Below are positions 1 to 44,008 of a stretch of DNA of 44,008 bases, piece after piece. Made by a program: the position numbers and the translations under genes. Position 1 is the stretch's first letter, and every line of letters starts with the position of its first letter. Below the pieces are notes generated by a model. That model had not been told where the DNA came from. It worked only from the letters and a program-made list of their open reading frames with translations, and did no database searches. The DNA lies in the IMG/VR virus record IMGVR_UViG_3300034140_000006, positions 1 to 44,008 of that record, one strand, 5' to 3'. Source of the DNA: a virus.

Positions 1-127
1 AAATTATTATTAATTACCTCGCATTATCACTTTTGTTACCCGAATTGTTACCCGATTTCTATTTCAGATGAACGCCACCATTCAGGTTGAGCTAAAACTG
101 CCAGCAAAAGCAGATGGCACACGTACA
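1..127. repeat. Terminal direct repeat, copy 1 (identical to 43882..44008)
   Basis: Direct comparison of the first and last lines of the window. The repeat includes the first 60 nt of the integrase ORF, so it is an overlap of a circular molecule rather than a biological terminal repeat. Confidence 0.9.
33..55 (+). promoter_or_regulatory. Tandem 11-bp direct repeat TTGTTACCCGA x2 (33..43 and 45..55), just upstream of the int start
   Basis: Read directly. Period is 12 bp and the repeat ends 12 nt before the int ATG. Candidate binding sites for a recombination-directionality or regulatory protein. Confidence 0.5.
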
Positions 128-1282
128 ATTTATATCCGAATCACCCAAAATCGAAAACACTGGCGCGTACCAGTGGGTTACTCCATCGAAGCAAAACACT
201 GGAATTCGGCAGCAGAATTTGACAAGAAAGTTAAAAGCTCCCATCCACTCCACAAAGTCATTAACGCAGCCATTCAGCAAAAATATTTAGAAGCAAAATC
301 AGAGCTTTTGAAAAGTAAAGTCAATCAAAACGCCCTTACACCAGCACTACTGCAAAGGGAACTAACCGGCCAAAACTCACAATCGTTTTTTGCTTTTTCT
401 GACATTATTGCAGCCCGGATTCGGCAAAAGAATTTCAACACATTCGAGCAGTACCAGACCGCACTCAACAAACTAAAAAAATACCTAAAAAACAAAGACC
501 TTTCTTTCGATGATCTGACCGTGCCTTTTTTAAAGTCTTACCAGGCTTACCTGCAGGGACTAGGAAACAACCAAACAACCGTATATAATTCTTTCAAGGT
601 GATCCGGGCGGTTTATTACCACGCCATACAGGACGAACTAGTGTCACAAGATAAAAACCCATTCTTTAGATTCCGGTTTTCGGCTGGGAAAGCGAACCGT
701 ACAAAACTAACTCAGGAAGAGATTGGACGAATTGAAGCATTAGAGTTAGAGAGGAACACACCCATCTGGCACGCACGAAATTACTTTCTATTTTCCTTCT
801 ACTGCGCAGGTATGCGCGTACGTGATGTATTACAGTTGAAATGGGTTAATGTGCGGAACGGCAGGATTGACTACGCAATGAGCAAAACCGGCGTGGCAAA
901 ATCAATTAAATTAATTGACAGAGCAGAAACGATACTTTCCTATTATCGTCCAGAAAAAATAACGATGACTCACTGGATCTTCCCGGCACTTAGCAACACA
1001 CGCGAGTACAATGATCAGTTGCTGAGGATGCATATTCGCAGTGTAGTTCCACGAATAAACAAGTGGTTGAAGGTGGTTGCAGAAAGAGCCGGCATCAATA
1101 AGCCCATATCCATGCACGTTTCCAGGCACTCAATGGCAGACATTGCTCGGACTAAAGGAGTAGACCTATATAATATAAGCAAGCTGTTGGGGCACTCTTC
1201 ATTGAAGATCACAGAAGCATACCTGAAAAATGATGACGAAAAATCAAGAGATTCTGCGATGGATAATATTTATAATAGCTAG
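68..1282 (+). CDS. int: Tyrosine integrase (Bacteroidota-type site-specific recombinase)
   Basis: 404 aa. N-terminal arm-type domain plus SAM-like core. Catalytic-box motifs AGMRVRD (R), HVSRHSMA (H-x-x-R) and LLGHSSLKITEAYL (H...Y). Confidence 0.95.
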   Translation: MNATIQVELKLPAKADGTRTIYIRITQNRKHWRVPVGYSIEAKHWNSAAEFDKKVKSSHPLHKVINAAIQQKYLEAKSELLKSKVNQNALTPALLQRELTGQNSQSFFAFSDIIAARIRQKNFNTFEQYQTALNKLKKYLKNKDLSFDDLTVPFLKSYQAYLQGLGNNQTTVYNSFKVIRAVYYHAIQDELVSQDKNPFFRFRFSAGKANRTKLTQEEIGRIEALELERNTPIWHARNYFLFSFYCAGMRVRDVLQLKWVNVRNGRIDYAMSKTGVAKSIKLIDRAETILSYYRPEKITMTHWIFPALSNTREYNDQLLRMHIRSVVPRINKWLKVVAERAGINKPISMHVSRHSMADIARTKGVDLYNISKLLGHSSLKITEAYLKNDDEKSRDSAMDNIYNS

Positions 1283-1315: not shown

Positions 1316-2818
1316 CTAATGTGCTGCCTGCATCTGAGGTTGTGGCAAGAATTTAATACACAACTCCCAGATGTGTTCGTAGGGAATGATCTCAATCTCG
1401 GTGTAGGCATCGCCCTCAGTGGGCAAGGAAGCCAGTTTATCCGAAAGGTATTGGCAGCGACGACGCATCTGATTCGGATCAAGATAGTAATTTTGGGATA
1501 GGGCGCGAAAAAGCTTGAAGAGCGTGCGCACGCGATCACTGAAGGAGGATTTCAAGTGTTTCACTATGTATTCATTAAGGGCATCGACTCGGTACATCAA
1601 CGAATCCATATCCTGTTTCTTCAGGAAGTAGAGGAACTGCAATACTAAGATAGCTACGTTTAAACCGGCCTTGTCCTTCCGGTAGTGAGGCAGTTGGGAA
1701 ACTAACTGGTTAAAGTCAAACTTGCGATCCACTTTCGGGGGGGGTAGCAGAAAGTGCAGGTAGGCCCGGTAGAGTGTCCATCGTTCTTGAGCTAGGGGAG
1801 AAATCTTGTGCCGATACGGATTTAATAATACGCTGGTCAGCAGGTGCTGGGCCAGGTCGTAGTTTTTCATGTGGAGAGCAAGCAGTACGTAGTTTTCCAT
1901 ATATGGAAACCAATGCCAATCCGATTCATCGAATGACTCCAGGTGCGCTTCAGCGTATTGAAGTCCGGCCTCGTACTGTTTGGTACGCAGGTATGCGTAC
2001 ACTTTTATGTAGCGGTTGTAGCGATGGTCAAAGCATTGTTCATTTATAAGCCCCTTCCCACAAAAGTCAACCGCTTGGTCAGTCAATTGAATAATTTCTT
2101 CAAAATTGTTGGTCAACTCCAAATACCAGATGTGTAATTTATAGTATTGCTCGAAAACTCCAAATGATTGGGTTAGCTGCCACAGCTCTTGCAGCCTTTT
2201 AACTGCTGCCATGACTTCTTGCAATAATTCTTGTCGTTGTTTAACAGACTGGTTCAGGCGTAGTTTCAGACCTAAGAATAAATGATTGGCTTCCTGTTCA
2301 TATTGAGCCATTTTTTGGTAGTGCTGAACCTTTTCCAGGTTTTTCTGATAGAGAACTGGCTTGTGTTGCTGCACGTAGAGGTATTGCAACGCTTCCAAAC
2401 CAGAGAGCAAAAATGAATTAAAGCCAGCTTTGGTAGATAAATCCACCAGTTTACAAGCCAGCTTTTCGGCATATTCGGCGCACCCCTTCGCCTGGAGCAC
2501 CTTGATTAAGTGAAACAATCGCCGGCACTCGTGCTCCAGTGCATTAGCCGGGTGGTTGCCAGGCTTTGCGAAATCCACAAAAAAAAGATTATTCAACAGC
2601 TTTCTCTTCAAACGCTTTTTCAGTGTCAGATAACGAAAGTCAGATTGATTTGTGCCATATATCGCCGCCGCTGCCTGTTCATCATTTTCGAAAGACCCCT
2701 CCACAATGCCTTTTAGATAGGTCAGCTCCTTACCCTGCTTTGATTTAAGCGAAATTAACGGGAGTGGCTGCTGCATGTCATCGGTCATGATATTAGCTAG
2801 CACCTTTAATTCTTTCAT
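1316..2818 (-). CDS. Helical-repeat (TPR-like) protein with HTH-like N-terminus; function unknown
   Basis: 500-aa ORF with ATG at 2818, convergent with int across a 33-nt gap. Leu/Lys/Gln/Tyr-rich with helix-pair-like segments (YEAGLQYAEAHL, NYDLAQHLLTSVL). The N-terminal stretch AAAAIYGTNQSDFRYLTLKKRLKRKL looks like an HTH. No catalytic motif recognised. Confidence 0.7.
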   Translation of the reverse strand: MKELKVLANIMTDDMQQPLPLISLKSKQGKELTYLKGIVEGSFENDEQAAAAIYGTNQSDFRYLTLKKRLKRKLLNNLFFVDFAKPGNHPANALEHECRRLFHLIKVLQAKGCAEYAEKLACKLVDLSTKAGFNSFLLSGLEALQYLYVQQHKPVLYQKNLEKVQHYQKMAQYEQEANHLFLGLKLRLNQSVKQRQELLQEVMAAVKRLQELWQLTQSFGVFEQYYKLHIWYLELTNNFEEIIQLTDQAVDFCGKGLINEQCFDHRYNRYIKVYAYLRTKQYEAGLQYAEAHLESFDESDWHWFPYMENYVLLALHMKNYDLAQHLLTSVLLNPYRHKISPLAQERWTLYRAYLHFLLPPPKVDRKFDFNQLVSQLPHYRKDKAGLNVAILVLQFLYFLKKQDMDSLMYRVDALNEYIVKHLKSSFSDRVRTLFKLFRALSQNYYLDPNQMRRRCQYLSDKLASLPTEGDAYTEIEIIPYEHIWELCIKFLPQPQMQAAH

Positions 2819-2962
2819 ATAGGTTTTATTCGTTTGCTTTCTATCCTCACATATATATATCTGCTAAACAGCTGATAAAAAAACAGTTAAAAATACGTGC
2901 ATCCGCTTAACGCTCATTATTCGAAGGTCATGCAAATGGCGAAAGGCTCTTTATTTTTCTAG

Positions 2963-3012
2963 TGCCATAATGATACTTTAGTCACACTAAACTAACTCAT
3001 ATCATTATGGCA
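2963..3012. promoter_or_regulatory. Perfect 13-bp inverted repeat (tgccataatgata / tatcattatggca) with a 24-nt spacer, enclosing the ATG of the 44-aa ORF
   Basis: Arms 2963..2975 and 3000..3012 are exact reverse complements. The 3' arm contains ATG 3007..3009. Confidence 0.6.
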
Positions 3013-3141
3013 ACTCTATTATTAACCCTACTCCTTTATTTTACCGCTCCCCTTACAGACCCCGATCAGAACTCAGCGCCTACGCCCAACACTACCTTTC
3101 AAACGAATGGAGGAACAGGTGCATGGAGTGAAAAACTTTAG
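3007..3141 (+). CDS. Unannotated 44-aa ORF, pre-peptide-like (hydrophobic N-terminus, polar tail)
   Basis: ATG 3007 and TAG 3139..3141. Sequence MATLLLTLLLYFTAPLTDPDQNSAPTPNTTFQTNGGTGAWSEKL. Below the ORF-track cutoff. Divergent from the 500-aa gene and followed by a strong terminator. Coding status is unproven. Confidence 0.3.
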   Translation: MATLLLTLLLYFTAPLTDPDQNSAPTPNTTFQTNGGTGAWSEKL

Positions 3142-3211
3142 TATGGGGACACATTTGTAATAATGGCATAATGTTTTCCTACAGGAAAGGAAATTATTGA
3201 GCACAATGTAA

Positions 3212-3226
3212 CATGTAAATTACATG
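3212..3226. promoter_or_regulatory. Palindrome CATGTAA-a-TTACATG
   Basis: 7-bp arms read directly. Lies between the 44-aa ORF and the terminator. Confidence 0.35.
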
Positions 3227-3238
3227 CTATTACTAAGG

Positions 3239-3280
3239 ACACAAATGGCCTCTTAGAAATAAGGAGGCCATTTGTGTTTT
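3239..3280 (+). terminator. Rho-independent terminator (+ strand)
   Basis: Perfect 14-bp stem (acacaaatggcctc / gaggccatttgtgt), 11-nt loop, then a short T run. Confidence 0.8.
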
Positions 3281-3397
3281 AGAGTTTATAAAAAATACGC
3301 TTATATAATCAAAAAAATAACATATAGTTTGCAGCAAGGTGGTTAAAAGATCTTGCGAGTTGCAAAAGTGCGGACAGTTGTCTTTCTTAGCGGCCCA

Positions 3398-3520
3398 ATG
3401 ATCCGTCGCGCCGTTTCGCGTTCCCTCCACGGCGGGGGCTGGGAGCCGCCCGGGTGGTTGCTGGTGATCGTGTGGGGAGTGATACTGTACGGTGTGCTGA
3501 AGGGGTGCGATGTGGTGTAG
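3398..3520 (+). CDS. Possible 40-aa single-pass membrane peptide inside a G+C-rich patch
   Basis: ATG 3398 and TAG 3518..3520. Sequence MIRRAVSRSLHGGGWEPPGWLLVIVWGVILYGVLKGCDVV (basic N-terminus plus a hydrophobic helix). May be a chance ORF in a G-rich tract. Confidence 0.2.
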   Translation: MIRRAVSRSLHGGGWEPPGWLLVIVWGVILYGVLKGCDVV

Positions 3521-3558
3521 TTGCAGGCAATACCCGAAGGTGCAATTGAGAGTGGGGG

Positions 3559-3870
3559 TTAAGCTAATAACCCGTGGTGTGCAATGTAGTTGAACTTAGC
3601 AAGGGACTTTAAGAGGCCAAAAAACTGTTTTGCTGTCACGTAATGCGTCTTGTCGATGGTTTTACCGCCGTAAACAAAATTATGGTTCTCGTCCTTCTCC
3701 ACCATCAAAAGCCCATATCCTTCATCGTTAGCGATTTCTACACGATCACCAGCCTCATTCAAGCGATGGTACTCCAGCGTGTTTCCAGACATTACCGCTT
3801 CTATTGTAGTCTTTTTGCCATCAAGCACTTCCGTAAACTTTGCGATGCTCTTTCCTTCGATATTTCCCAT
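3559..3870 (-). CDS. Hypothetical protein (103 aa)
   Basis: ATG at 3870. Last gene of a minus-strand two-gene cassette. No motif recognised. Confidence 0.6.
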   Translation of the reverse strand: MGNIEGKSIAKFTEVLDGKKTTIEAVMSGNTLEYHRLNEAGDRVEIANDEGYGLLMVEKDENHNFVYGGKTIDKTHYVTAKQFFGLLKSLAKFNYIAHHGLLA

Positions 3871-3906: not shown

Positions 3907-4122
3907 TTAAAGCACTTTACTGACGATTTGCTTTCCTGGGTAAATAGCAGAAAAATAATTGATCACATCTTGATCAGTATCACCAGGCAATGCAGGCGTT
4001 TCTCCTTTGTCAAGAACTTTAATCGTTCTCATTATCTGTCCAGGCTCCTGCTCGCAAAGTGAAGCCTTGAACTTAATTGTGTTATCTCTTCTCCATTCCC
4101 CATTGATGATTACCTTTTCCAT
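3907..4122 (-). CDS. Hypothetical small protein (71 aa)
   Basis: ATG at 4122 preceded by the leader ACTACGACG. The palindromic element lies about 35 nt upstream. Confidence 0.6.
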   Translation of the reverse strand: MEKVIINGEWRRDNTIKFKASLCEQEPGQIMRTIKVLDKGETPALPGDTDQDVINYFSAIYPGKQIVSKVL

Positions 4123-5174: not shown

Positions 5175-5687
5175 CTACAGAGCACCTTTTACCCTGCACA
5201 TTTCCCAAACCCAATCAGGAATAGCCCTTTTGCCACCCTCCCAATCCGCTATGGTGCGGAATGTGTTAGGTGCGTTAGGAACCAGCCACTGATGAAACTC
5301 CGTCTGGCTGAGTCCTAGCTGTTTTCTTATTGACAGCAGACGGGCTGCATCATCCTGGCTTGCTTCCTCAACTAGTTCGGGTGCCCACATACAGCGCGCT
5401 AACTCACGTTTCGCTTCACTATCCACATCATCCCAACGATCCATATAATTGTAGAAGGACTCAAAACTAAACCCAAGGCCCTCGTTTTTCATAATCATTA
5501 GGATCTTATCCAAGATCGAACCTACCTCATCATAACGACGATCCAGCAATTCGTTAAAATAAGTTATGCGGATTTTTGCTGTAGCTTCTCCGCGATGGTG
5601 AACAAACCTTTTGAGGGCAGCCCCAAAGTCCACCTCCTTCCTGTCCTTTGGTGAGTTGTACTTAGTTAACCACATCGGACATCTCAT
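5175..5687 (-). CDS. Protein with a C-terminal XRE-type HTH (170 aa)
   Basis: C-terminus LLSIRKQLGLSQTEFHQWLV...TIADWEGGKRAIP is Cro/C1-like. N-terminal ~110 aa unassigned. An alternative ATG lies at 5675. Confidence 0.6.
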   Translation of the reverse strand: MRCPMWLTKYNSPKDRKEVDFGAALKRFVHHRGEATAKIRITYFNELLDRRYDEVGSILDKILMIMKNEGLGFSFESFYNYMDRWDDVDSEAKRELARCMWAPELVEEASQDDAARLLSIRKQLGLSQTEFHQWLVPNAPNTFRTIADWEGGKRAIPDWVWEMCRVKGAL

Positions 5688-5961
5688 TTAATCGTGACAA
5701 GCCTGATTCAAAAGCGAACTTCTTTTCTTCCCGACGCGCTATCTTGTTTTTATTATCAGACTGGCTTTTGTCAAACCAAGCTTGTACCCGACACACTTCA
5801 AAAACGCCTGAAGCAAGGTCACCTTCCCACGTATTTCTTTCCAATAGCCCTGAAGTTGTTCCATCACTGTAAACAGCAACTTGATAGTTGCTATTAACTG
5901 AATAACGCTCAACTTGATCTAAGGCATTTTCAATTGCGGACTTAAGTTCTTTTGCTTCCAT
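5662..5961 (-). CDS. Hypothetical protein (99 aa, trimmed start)
   Basis: The track start at 6021 is TTG and overlaps the palindrome. ATG 5961 (MEAKELKSAIE...) is preferred. Confidence 0.55.
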   Translation of the reverse strand: MEAKELKSAIENALDQVERYSVNSNYQVAVYSDGTTSGLLERNTWEGDLASGVFEVCRVQAWFDKSQSDNKNKIARREEKKFAFESGLSRLNEMSDVVN

Positions 5962-6126: not shown

Positions 6127-6375
6127 TCATTCAATCCTTCCTTCTTCGTCCAGTTCCTTAGGAGGGGCACCAGTCCGATCGGCATCTTTGCTTGCAATAT
6201 GCCCCAAGCCTGTTGCCAACGCAGTCAGCAGGGCCCCAATTTTCGCAGCCTGATCTTCTGTAATCACTCCAAACACTGCCAGAGCGCCTGTGAAAAAGAC
6301 GATGAACAGGATAATAACGCCCACAGAGGTCGTTTTAATCGAGTTGAGGAAGGGGTTTTTTGAGAGCTTTGCCAT
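6127..6375 (-). CDS. Holin-like small membrane protein (82 aa, trimmed start)
   Basis: From ATG 6375: two hydrophobic helices (VGVIILFIVFFTGALAVFGVI and IGALLTALATGLGHIA) and a charged C-terminal tail. Sits at the end of the lysis region. Confidence 0.5.
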   Translation of the reverse strand: MAKLSKNPFLNSIKTTSVGVIILFIVFFTGALAVFGVITEDQAAKIGALLTALATGLGHIASKDADRTGAPPKELDEEGRIE

Positions 6376-6717: not shown

Positions 6718-7392
6718 TTACGCCTTTCTCTGTAACGCTTTGCCAAGGAAATAGAACAGCAAAAACGCCAAGAGTGCTCCGACTCCCATTGCTACCCACG
6801 ACTGCCAGAATGATAGCCATTCCCTAGGGATATACTTAGGAACCGGAGGGCACGGAACCCGCTTCTCTGTCGGCACTTCAATTCTGTCTTCCCATAGCTG
6901 ATGTCTTAATTTCCCCTTATATAAATAAGCCTCGGACCTGGCATTCTTACCCACTATCGTAGACGTATCAGTGTTCGGCCGGCCGTTCTCTATGACACTC
7001 TGAGCTGCCCGGCCAGCCAGTTCCCGGTACATATCCCGTTCAGTAAGGGCCATTTTGAACGAGTCCCGTCTGGAATCTTCCCTCTCAATGAAGATGCGCT
7101 TCAATCGCTCTACTTCGTCCCTGCTATAGTGCGTATTTGCCTCTTTCTCCGTTTCGGTGTGCGCTCCCTCTATAATTACAGTGTCCCGGACGGTAACCGT
7201 ATCACTGATTCCCATTTCAGGGAATTCTTCCAGTGCTGCTTTGACGGCCTTTTTTGCCAGCACCTTATTTTTTCGCACAGTATTAAGGAAACCGGCTTCT
7301 TTCTTTGCCTGTCGAAACGCCTTGAAAGGCCCGCACGACTGGAGATTAATACCGACGAGGAGAACGAGGACGTATAGTTTCTTCATCAGCAT
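6718..7392 (-). CDS. Lipoprotein with a C-terminal transmembrane helix (o-spanin or u-spanin-like)
   Basis: 224 aa. Signal and lipobox-like MKKLYVLVLLVGINLQSC, a charged middle region, and C-terminal WVAMGVGALLAFLLFYFLG. The start overlaps the upstream gene by 47 nt. Confidence 0.55.
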   Translation of the reverse strand: MLMKKLYVLVLLVGINLQSCGPFKAFRQAKKEAGFLNTVRKNKVLAKKAVKAALEEFPEMGISDTVTVRDTVIIEGAHTETEKEANTHYSRDEVERLKRIFIEREDSRRDSFKMALTERDMYRELAGRAAQSVIENGRPNTDTSTIVGKNARSEAYLYKGKLRHQLWEDRIEVPTEKRVPCPPVPKYIPREWLSFWQSWVAMGVGALLAFLLFYFLGKALQRKA

Positions 7393-43881: not shown

Positions 43882-44008
43882 AAATTATTATTAATTACCT
43901 CGCATTATCACTTTTGTTACCCGAATTGTTACCCGATTTCTATTTCAGATGAACGCCACCATTCAGGTTGAGCTAAAACTGCCAGCAAAAGCAGATGGCA
44001 CACGTACA
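43882..44008. repeat. Terminal direct repeat, copy 2 (duplicate of 1..127, including a truncated int 5' end at 43949..44008)
   Basis: Identical to 1..127 with an offset of 43,881 bp. Confidence 0.9.

Follow-up and report, generated by a model that had tools for sequence, protein, structure and literature searches.

In the RRNPP quorum-sensing systems of Firmicutes (PlcR/PapR, NprR/NprX, Rap/Phr and PrgX/PrgQ-cCF10) a cytoplasmic TPR-type receptor, carrying an N-terminal XRE/Cro-type HTH domain except in Rap, is encoded next to a secreted pro-peptide of about 40-60 aa, and the mature peptide is re-imported by an oligopeptide permease (Opp). In the arbitrium system of SPbeta-like Bacillus phages the co-directional aimR-aimP-aimX genes, the last a regulated sRNA or small gene, sit beside the lysogeny genes. 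The streptococcal Rgg/SHP and ComR/XIP systems use small hydrophobic pro-peptides without a classical signal sequence, often divergently transcribed from the receptor gene, exported through PptAB/Eep and re-imported by Opp/Ami. These systems are regarded as traits of Firmicutes; the RRNPP_detector survey analysed only Firmicutes genomes (PMC10075063), and a literature search found no paper linking RRNPP or arbitrium to a system in Bacteroidota.

Here we describe a gene pair adjacent to the integrase of a temperate Bacteroidota phage, a strong candidate, from sequence comparison alone, for peptide signalling outside the Firmicutes. The window, the whole 44,008-nt stretch analysed (IMG/VR record IMGVR_UViG_3300034140_000006), is a complete circular temperate tailed-phage genome with no near-identical relative among GenBank phages. 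Similar to RRNPP systems, a predicted cytoplasmic TPR-like protein is encoded next to a small precursor whose C-terminal part is the likely active unit, an Opp-type importer is genetically linked in chromosomal relatives, the divergent orientation resembles prgX/prgQ, and the systems occur on chromosomes and mobile elements. However, no homology to RRNPP receptors was detected, the putative DNA-binding domain is not XRE-type, the precursor lacks the basic n-region of a Sec signal, precursors hold up to 11 units, the Trp-Gly-rich unit is invariant, the importer appears from gene order to be dedicated and co-transcribed, and the hosts are Gram-negative. As in arbitrium, a putative receptor and pro-peptide pair lies on a temperate phage beside or inside the lysogeny module, and the window has an inverted repeat with a long 24-nt spacer, although the genes are divergent, the peptide motif differs, no homology to AimR was detected, the inverted repeat is not conserved in relatives, and a role in lysogeny is inferred from position alone. 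The precursor resembles those of Rgg/SHP and ComR/XIP in being small, with a hydrophobic N-terminus that lacks a basic n-region, and in its divergent orientation, although those receptors have XRE-type HTH domains and are homologous to RRNPP, and no equivalent of PptAB/Eep is seen here. Tandem identical core units, implying proteolytic release of many copies, also occur in unrelated precursors such as yeast alpha-factor and cyanobactin PatE; no processing enzymes were identified here.

Organization of the locus

The initial annotation proposed a peptide-receptor module composed of a 500-aa helical-repeat protein with an HTH-like N-terminus beside the integrase, a divergent and unannotated 44-aa ORF, a perfect 13-bp inverted repeat, a palindrome and a terminator, the last two defining a short self-contained transcript. 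The observation was confirmed, with all sequence features at the positions given there and the helical repeats confirmed by an AlphaFold2 model. Three points required correction: JGI had called the small ORF as a hypothetical protein (P0077), the HTH-like N-terminus remains unproven, and the inverted repeat is specific to this phage. The features are as follows.

68..1282 (+), tyrosine integrase, convergent with the putative receptor gene; Pfam Arm-DNA-bind_5, Phage_int_SAM_5 and Phage_integrase
1316..2818 (-), 500-aa predicted cytoplasmic TPR-like protein, the putative peptide receptor or regulator
2555..2818 (-), its N-terminal four-helix domain (residues 1-88), a possible but unproven DNA-binding HTH of sigma-70 region-4 type
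2819..3006, 188-bp divergent intergenic region with the putative pre-peptide promoter: a -33-like TTTATTTTT at 2950-2958, a -7-like TACTTTAG at 2974-2981, and a conserved 5' UTR at 2981-3003
2963..3012, perfect 13-nt inverted repeat, arms TGCCATAATGATA (2963-2975) and TATCATTATGGCA (3000-3012) with 24 nt between them, bracketing the -7 box, with the ATG inside the 3' arm; a possible operator
3007..3141 (+), 44-aa pre-peptide gene encoding MATLLLTLLLYFTAPLTDPDQNSAPTPNTTFQTNGGTGAWSEKL
3007..3054 (+), uncharged hydrophobic N-terminal segment MATLLLTLLLYFTAPL, the presumed export or membrane-targeting leader
3109..3138 (+), C-terminal unit GGTGAWSEKL, the presumed mature-peptide region
3209..3229, palindrome in the 3' UTR with 10-nt arms at 90% complementarity and the core CATGTAA-A-TTACATG at 3212-3226
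3239..3282 (+), perfect 14-bp stem (3239-3252 / 3264-3277) followed by TTTT, the likely terminator of the pre-peptide transcript

The 3' region 3142-3295 folds far better than shuffled sequence (-46.8 kcal/mol, z = -6.8), although a simple terminator scan did not call the hairpin because the loop is 11 nt and the T-run only 4. Relatives carry a different GC-rich hairpin at the equivalent place. The promoter blocks are conserved in all six phage-clade loci, their assignment to the Bacteroidota -33/-7 consensus having been made by eye. The inverted repeat is absent from the closest relatives, in which the left arm falls in the variable promoter spacer. When the repeat arm and the conserved 5' UTR were searched for elsewhere in the phage as possible further operators, only an arm copy with one mismatch was found at 6803-6815, which is not significant. 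An alignment of 42 Hymenobacter-type intergenic regions showed recurring TGTGAC-like blocks that did not resolve into a defined operator.

No aimX-like RNA was found. Rfam returned no match at gathering thresholds on the whole window or at permissive E-values on 2819-3620, and the downstream GC-rich stretch 3340-3560 is neither structured (z = 0.39) nor conserved in relatives. ARAGORN found no tRNA or tmRNA.

Conservation of the gene pair and its chromosomal neighbourhood

The conservation of the small ORF in relatives, which the initial annotation had named as a test, was evaluated in phage, mobile-element and chromosomal loci (designated by L numbers). A divergent ORF is conserved together with its promoter blocks in all six phage/mobile-element relatives; the ORF encodes 43-47 aa in L001, L088, L003, L004 and L090, with in-frame indels and substitutions biased to third codon positions (219:119:263 by codon position). 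These results show that the small ORF is a conserved coding gene. Similarity between the window and seven relatives' loci is confined to about 1325-3143, exactly the two genes, indicating that they move as one cassette. In prophages L088 and L089/L004 the cassette lies between the integrase and a Cro/C1-type repressor. A protein search with the 44-aa peptide returned only itself.

The cassette is not phage-specific. At least 577 species genomes encode a relative of the large protein, and the system is mainly chromosomal in Cytophagales, from which phages have captured it. About 71 of 80 chromosomal relatives carry a divergent small ORF of the same architecture, comprising an uncharged hydrophobic N-terminus (family consensus M-[LI]-E-L-[LI]-x-x-A-L-L-Q-[FL]), a Thr/Ser-rich spacer and a C-terminal GG-x-G-x-W unit, with the motif 3-7 residues from the C-terminus across the family. 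The unit is amplified by internal tandem repeats (2-11 copies, 23 of 64 loci), reaching 11 within one precursor in Hymenobacter, or by tandem gene copies (L008, L015, L090), as expected for a released peptide whose dose matters. Genes for an Opp/Dpp-type peptide-binding lipoprotein (SBP_bac_5) and two permeases (BPD_transp_1) lie on the peptide strand in 68 of 80 loci, and in 64 of 80 the peptide gene heads this operon, with a median gap of about 80 nt between peptide stop and SBP start. This importer, the third component of RRNPP logic, could not have been seen from the phage sequence and is absent from the phage cassette; the evidence for re-import is genetic linkage only, and the opp-like operons lack ATPase genes. 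Distant family members in Chitinophagales lack both the W-peptide and opp. Peptide-unit divergence tracks receptor divergence after controlling for the permease (partial Mantel r = 0.38, p about 5e-4), which is weak evidence.

K or R occurs in the first 12 residues in only 4 of 70 family members and an acidic residue in the first 5 in 42 of 70, often at position 3, unlike the MKK-type lipoprotein signals of the neighbouring binding proteins in the same genomes. Sec export is therefore doubtful, and no exporter or protease is conserved nearby. Readings of the leader by eye as a double-glycine type or a pilin-like N-terminus were rejected as inconsistent across clades. Clustering of the neighbourhoods of 85 loci found only the binding protein, the permeases and clade-specific unrelated genes.

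Predicted structure and homologues of the 500-aa protein

The large protein has no signal peptide or transmembrane segment and belongs to a large unnamed Bacteroidota family, with 76 word-indexed homologues of about 500 aa and 4,010 representative clusters at 50% identity. Pfam, PHROGs, NCBIfam and PADLOC gave no family for either gene; a weak DDE_Tnp_1_2 hit (E 7e-4, below the cut-off) is spurious. Scans of viral and metagenome contigs with the single protein found little, although an alignment-based viral scan found two IMG/VR contigs. The AlphaFold2 model is entirely alpha-helical (pLDDT 89.5, pTM 0.85) and a confident TPR-like solenoid. Its concave face is lined by the near-invariant residues W303, E308, E345, W347, Y353, D382, K383, N387, R429 and the EIIPYE motif. 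Foldseek matched only generic TPR proteins such as LGN, MalT domain III (the second hit), OGT/SPY and PilF with probability about 1.0, although E was only 4e-3 to 4e-2 and TM 0.2-0.48.

No sequence or specific structural similarity to AimR, PlcR, NprR, Rap or PrgX was detected. No Pfam family of RRNPP receptors (RNPP_C, AimR) was hit in the query or in 66 family members, in which TPR_12 and TPR_14 were each hit once; a profile search of all PDB chains at E <= 10 gave six unrelated hits; and no RRNPP structure appeared in the top 50 Foldseek matches. The N-terminal 88 residues, modelled with pLDDT 73, form helices 2-14, 30-40, 46-54 and 61-78, for which the best Foldseek matches were SigD4, SigL region 4, RpoE and UPF0122, all at the non-significant E >= 1.4, while an XRE-type protein (HigA) ranked fourth with probability 0.06. 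No Pfam HTH was hit in 9 N-terminal fragments. On these searches the domain is not of XRE type, and any HTH or DNA binding is conjectural. The combination of a helical-repeat sensor with a small sigma-70 region-4/LuxR-like helical domain recalls MalT and ECF sigma factors with TPR extensions, at fold level only, since domain order and size differ and there is no ATPase or sigma-2 domain.

Interpretation of the cassette

The proposal of the initial annotation, an analogous receptor, pro-peptide and short-RNA unit controlling lysogeny, is partly supported: comparative genomics supports the RRNPP/arbitrium-like logic of peptide, importer and cytoplasmic receptor, whereas membership of RRNPP and an aimX-like RNA are not supported. 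We consider it about as likely as not that the cassette (1316-3282), derived from the chromosomal Cytophagales system, works like RRNPP/arbitrium without being homologous to it. In this view the hydrophobic N-terminus would take the pre-peptide to or across the inner membrane, and proteolysis would release a C-terminal peptide of about 8-11 residues containing G-x-W (here from GGTGAWSEKL), which would accumulate outside the cell, be re-imported by the host's cognate Opp-like transporter and bind the groove of the solenoid. The regulatory output would probably be transcription through the N-terminal four-helix domain and may include the pre-peptide promoter itself, giving the phage a density- or infection-history-dependent input to lysogeny or induction. 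The analysis shows the conserved coding gene, its conserved promoter blocks and terminator hairpin, the two-gene boundaries of the cassette, the chromosomal linkage to importer genes, the amplification of the C-terminal unit and the position in prophages; secretion, processing, re-import, peptide binding, DNA binding and control of lysogeny are inferred, without expression, peptide or phenotype data.

It is possible, although tentative, that the cassette belongs to a previously unrecognised peptide-based cell-cell signalling system of Gram-negative Cytophagales, with a new family of TPR-like receptors of thousands of members, Trp-containing pro-peptides that are often multi-copy and a dedicated co-transcribed Opp-like importer, from which temperate phages and integrative elements captured the receptor and peptide pair into their lysogeny modules; this would be the first arbitrium-like communication outside Firmicutes phages. 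If the module works as proposed, it would show convergent evolution of the three-part logic in a Gram-negative phylum, give a function to an unnamed family of about 4,000 clusters and to hundreds of mostly unannotated small ORFs, supply a peptide language of G-x-W units that can be synthesised and tested directly in culturable Hymenobacter, Pontibacter and Adhaeribacter, and extend phage communication over lysis and lysogeny beyond Bacillus and Clostridia phages.

Other explanations are less likely. The small protein could remain in the cell, tethered to the membrane by its N-terminus, and sequester the TPR protein through its G-x-W motif or motifs in the manner of an anti-regulator, the opp-like operon being only a regulated target. 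The lack of a basic n-region and the frequent acidic residue at position 3 would, by the positive-inside rule, leave the C-terminus in the cytoplasm; TPR domains typically bind short linear motifs, repeated motifs could titrate several receptor molecules, and no exporter or protease is conserved nearby. This unlikely alternative does not explain the co-oriented peptide importer in 64 of 80 genomes, the hydrophobic stretch of about 12-15 residues is short for a transmembrane helix, and gene-level and internal amplification of the unit fit a released product better. Equally unlikely is that the phage receptor senses the host's own chromosomal peptide and so reads host rather than phage density, as vibriophage VP882 VqmA-Phi reportedly senses a host autoinducer, with the phage peptide or the receptor perhaps also interfering with the host circuit; the cassette would then be a host-takeover moron rather than phage-to-phage communication. 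The host-type system is widespread, the phage cassette must rely on the host's importer, and phage and chromosomal peptides share the GG-x-G-x-W core. However, the phage clade keeps its own peptide gene with conserved promoter blocks in all six loci, and the residues flanking W differ from those of the chromosomal clades (for example WSEKL, WHDR and WVER against WDDSN, WDTRD and WGDGH).

The conserved leader, variable spacer and repeated cores also resemble multi-core RiPP or bacteriocin-like precursors, in which the conserved Trp could be a modification site, the 500-aa protein a pathway regulator or scaffold, and the ABC components would serve transport or immunity. This is very unlikely, since no modifying enzyme (radical SAM, cyclase, prenyltransferase or C39 peptidase) is conserved in 80 neighbourhoods or present in the phage cassette, the transporter is of importer type, and Foldseek places the large protein among TPR scaffolds and not among enzymes. 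That the small ORF is only a cis-acting leader peptide (uORF), or a chance ORF within a regulatory region or attP, is suggested by its position directly upstream of the chromosomal opp-like operon but is already largely refuted: in all phage and mobile-element loci it is followed by a terminator and no operon, the amino-acid motifs, in-frame indels and repeats are conserved across families at 30-40% receptor identity, and similarity ends exactly at the stop codon.

Organization of the two-gene cassette in the phage genome

The window was found to be a complete temperate tailed-phage genome encoding a large terminase, tape-measure protein, portal, replication initiator, ERF recombinase and a tyrosine integrase. 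The first 127 nt (1-127) are identical to the last 127 nt (43882-44008), indicating that the assembly closes into a circle of 43,881 bp in which the integrase gene starts just after the junction. The sequence features on which the initial annotation was based were all confirmed at the following positions.

68-1282 (+), tyrosine integrase
1316-2818 (-), ORF encoding a 500-aa protein
between the two divergent ORFs, a spacer of 188 bp
2963-2975 / 3000-3012, perfect 13-nt inverted repeat, the 3' arm of which covers the ATG of the small ORF
3007-3141 (+), ORF encoding a 44-aa pre-peptide
3209-3229, small palindrome
3239-3277, perfect 14-bp stem followed by TTTT

The region 3' of the small ORF folds much better than shuffled sequence (z = -6.8). 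A GC-rich, G-skewed non-coding stretch at 3340-3560 (52-58% GC against approximately 40% nearby), located between the likely peptide terminator and the next gene, gave no Rfam hit, folds no better than shuffled sequence (z = 0.39) and has no similarity in any related locus; it might be attP or a remnant of host DNA.

The 13-nt arms of the inverted repeat, separated by 24 nt, bracket the -7 box and overlap the start codon. The geometry recalls that of AimR operators, which are 6-mer inverted boxes 25 bp apart (PMC6458997). However, the left arm lies in a promoter spacer that varies among relatives, none of which has such a repeat. The repeat is unlikely to be due to chance, with a rough estimate of about 6e-4 for this interval, and is specific to this phage, where it may serve as an operator or a translational hairpin. 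A one-mismatch copy of the arm (TGCCAGAATGATA) was located at 6803-6815 inside the ORF at 6718-7392 (-), although this match is not statistically compelling.

The 500-aa protein and its predicted helical-repeat fold

Searches of Pfam, PHROGs, NCBIfam and PADLOC with the 500-aa protein returned no family. Nevertheless, the protein belongs to a large and uniform family of proteins approximately 500 aa in length. A word-indexed search revealed 76 relatives, and a full HMM search of 1.84 billion representatives revealed 4,010 clusters at E <= 1e-3. At least 577 species genomes carry a relative, mainly those of Hymenobacter, Pontibacter, Rufibacter, Adhaeribacter, Cyclobacteriaceae and Roseivirgaceae. 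Receptor paralogues also occur in tandem (locus L093, 8497-11491; 494 aa and 496 aa in Pontibacter diazotrophicus), and one representative (P0142, 1032 aa) appears to be a fusion of two receptor-length halves.

An AlphaFold2 model built on 66 homologues was confident (pLDDT 89.5, pTM 0.85) and entirely helical. Comparison of the model with the PDB by Foldseek returned only generic TPR or solenoid proteins at weak scores (E >= 4e-3, TM 0.2-0.48), among which MalT domain III ranked second, and no RRNPP receptor appeared in the top 50 matches. A profile search of all PDB sequences found nothing relevant. When modelled alone, the N-terminal 88 residues formed four helices (pLDDT 73) for which the best structural matches were sigma-70 region-4 domains (SigD4, SigL, RpoE and UPF0122), all non-significant (E >= 1.4), and no Pfam HTH model was hit. 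Thus, the helical-repeat assignment of the initial annotation is confirmed, the HTH assignment is only a lead, and homology to RRNPP receptors is not supported.

Conservation of the small ORF and its chromosomal relatives

In order to determine whether the small ORF encodes a protein, the window was compared with the closest relatives (receptor identity 71-79%), in which the same divergent ORF is present with the C-termini listed below.

Partial sequences of the pre-peptides in the window and in related loci (L numbers)
window: MATLLLTLLLYF...NGGTGAWSEKL
L001: ...NGGIGAWSEKL
L088: ...NGGSGTWHEKL
L003: ...DGGAEGWHDR
L004/L089: ...DGGSGEWVER
L090: ...DGGSGTWPDR

The ATG is conserved, indels are in frame and substitutions fall 219:119:263 across codon positions 1, 2 and 3, results showing that the ORF codes for protein. 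The upstream blocks TTTATTTTT and TACTTTnG and a 5' UTR of about 25 nt are also conserved, and by visual inspection fit the Bacteroidota -33/-7 promoter consensus. Each ORF is followed by a hairpin. A tblastx comparison between the window and seven related loci revealed similarity only across approximately 1325-3143, a span comprising the two genes and the spacer between them, whereas the flanks are unrelated. The pair therefore moves as a cassette. In the IMG/VR prophages L088 and L089 (the latter equal to L004) the gene order is integrase, two small ORFs, peptide (minus strand), receptor (plus strand), Cro/C1-type HTH repressor (minus strand) and early genes. The proteins in L001 and L088 (sample 3300039306) match P0002 and P0003, for both of which the longest contig has 297,872 nt. 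That contig therefore appears to carry two cassette copies with different peptide units (IGAWSEKL and SGTWHEKL), one inside an IMG/VR-predicted provirus, a situation resembling coexisting 'pherotypes' in one lysogen.

The key evidence was obtained from the chromosomal relatives. Upstream of the receptor homologue, about 71 of 80 genome loci have a divergent small ORF with the same three-part build. The N-terminus is uncharged and hydrophobic with the consensus M-[LI]-E-L-[LI]-x-x-A-L-L-Q-[FL]-A-S-L, in which K or R occurs in the first 12 residues in only 4 of 70 members and Gln is at position 11 in 53 of 70. It is followed by a spacer rich in Thr, Ser, Ala and Pro and by a C-terminal unit GG-x-G-x-W-x(3-6). 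In many Hymenobacter species the unit is repeated in tandem within one precursor, for example EHGTGGWGDGHIVA six times in locus L051, GGSGGWGGDVA[AS]L about ten times in L080 and eleven units in L066. Upstream of the gene at 4001 in the Hymenobacter loci L066, L080, L067, L051, L058 and L041, the precursors carry 6-11 tandem, nearly identical units of 12-15 aa, such as GGSGGWGGDVA[AS]L or EHGTGGWGDG[HY], and reach 202 aa. Other genomes instead carry tandem copies of the gene (L008 and L015, in the upstream regions, and L090, at about 5500-5850); in L090 the distal copy has lost the Trp (…AGGMGQLGDLK) and may be decaying or a variant. Of 64 scored loci, 23 have at least two units. An alignment of 42 Hymenobacter-type intergenic regions revealed a strikingly constant receptor to peptide spacing of 350-385 nt and recurring TTGTGAC(AT)-like and AAAGGAA blocks that may be operator or promoter elements.

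Clustering of the neighbouring ORFs showed that in 68 of 80 loci the peptide strand carries a lipoprotein of about 575 aa followed by two permeases. Precomputed Pfam annotations identify these as SBP_bac_5 and BPD_transp_1 x2, an Opp/Dpp-type peptide importer. The gap from the peptide stop codon to the start of the binding protein is usually 35-145 nt. In L092 (4157-8825) and L093 (3204-7901) the opp-like operons contain the binding protein, two permeases and a conserved ORF of about 86-88 aa, but no ABC ATPase genes, indicating that the ATPase must be encoded elsewhere. The conserved unit is therefore a receptor-like gene facing an operon of pro-peptide, peptide-binding protein and permeases, of which the phage and mobile-element clade has kept only the receptor and the pro-peptide.

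Proposed mechanism and comparison with RRNPP systems

The most economical reading is RRNPP-like logic in which the pre-peptide would be exported, a C-terminal G-x-W peptide released (several from multi-unit precursors), taken up by the linked Opp-like importer and sensed by the cytoplasmic solenoid, the regulatory output of which would then change. On the phage this would couple lysogeny decisions to peptide concentration, using the importer of the host. The analysis itself establishes that the pair is conserved, that the small ORF is coding, that the two genes move as a cassette, that in chromosomal relatives they are linked to the importer, that the unit is amplified, the fold class of the large protein and the position inside lysogeny modules, whereas export, processing, import, peptide binding, DNA binding and any lysogeny phenotype are inferred. 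The proposal of the initial annotation, an RRNPP/arbitrium-like receptor and pro-peptide unit controlling lysogeny, is supported only in part. A partial Mantel test showed that peptide-unit divergence tracks receptor divergence (r = 0.38) and binding-protein divergence (r = 0.42) after controlling for permease divergence, with p about 5e-4, although the test controls only crudely for phylogeny and counts as weak support.

The N-terminus of the peptide is not a classical Sec signal, since it has no basic n-region and often has Glu at position 3, while the binding proteins in the same loci have MKK-type lipoprotein signals. No exporter or protease is conserved nearby, and the operons lack ATPase genes. 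An intracellular partner switch therefore remains possible, although this model does not explain linkage to the importer. A phage that eavesdrops on the host peptide, or jams the host circuit, is a plausible variant of the main model. Interpretation of the small ORF as a RiPP precursor lacks any modifying enzyme, and interpretation as a uORF or chance ORF is contradicted by the stand-alone, terminated gene in mobile elements.

In function the module resembles RRNPP systems, with a divergent orientation like that of prgX/prgQ and non-Sec pro-peptides like those of Rgg/SHP. However, it fails the homology and XRE-HTH criteria and should not be filed as an RRNPP or arbitrium member. Literature searches found no description of such a system in Bacteroidota, and the RRNPP_detector study analysed only Firmicutes genomes. 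The module is apparently non-homologous to the systems that it resembles in function, and is of interest in that it is widespread, unannotated and directly testable with synthetic peptides.

Distant family members in Chitinophagales (about 25% identity) lack both the W-peptide and opp, results indicating that the triad is characteristic of Cytophagales rather than of the whole family. One distant Chitinophagales member (locus L095) has a divergent 49-aa ORF at 6136-6285 (-) of similar build, with a hydrophobic uncharged N-terminus, a polar spacer and the C-terminus KGVVIIDTDEL, but no Trp, and may represent a different peptide type for the same receptor family.
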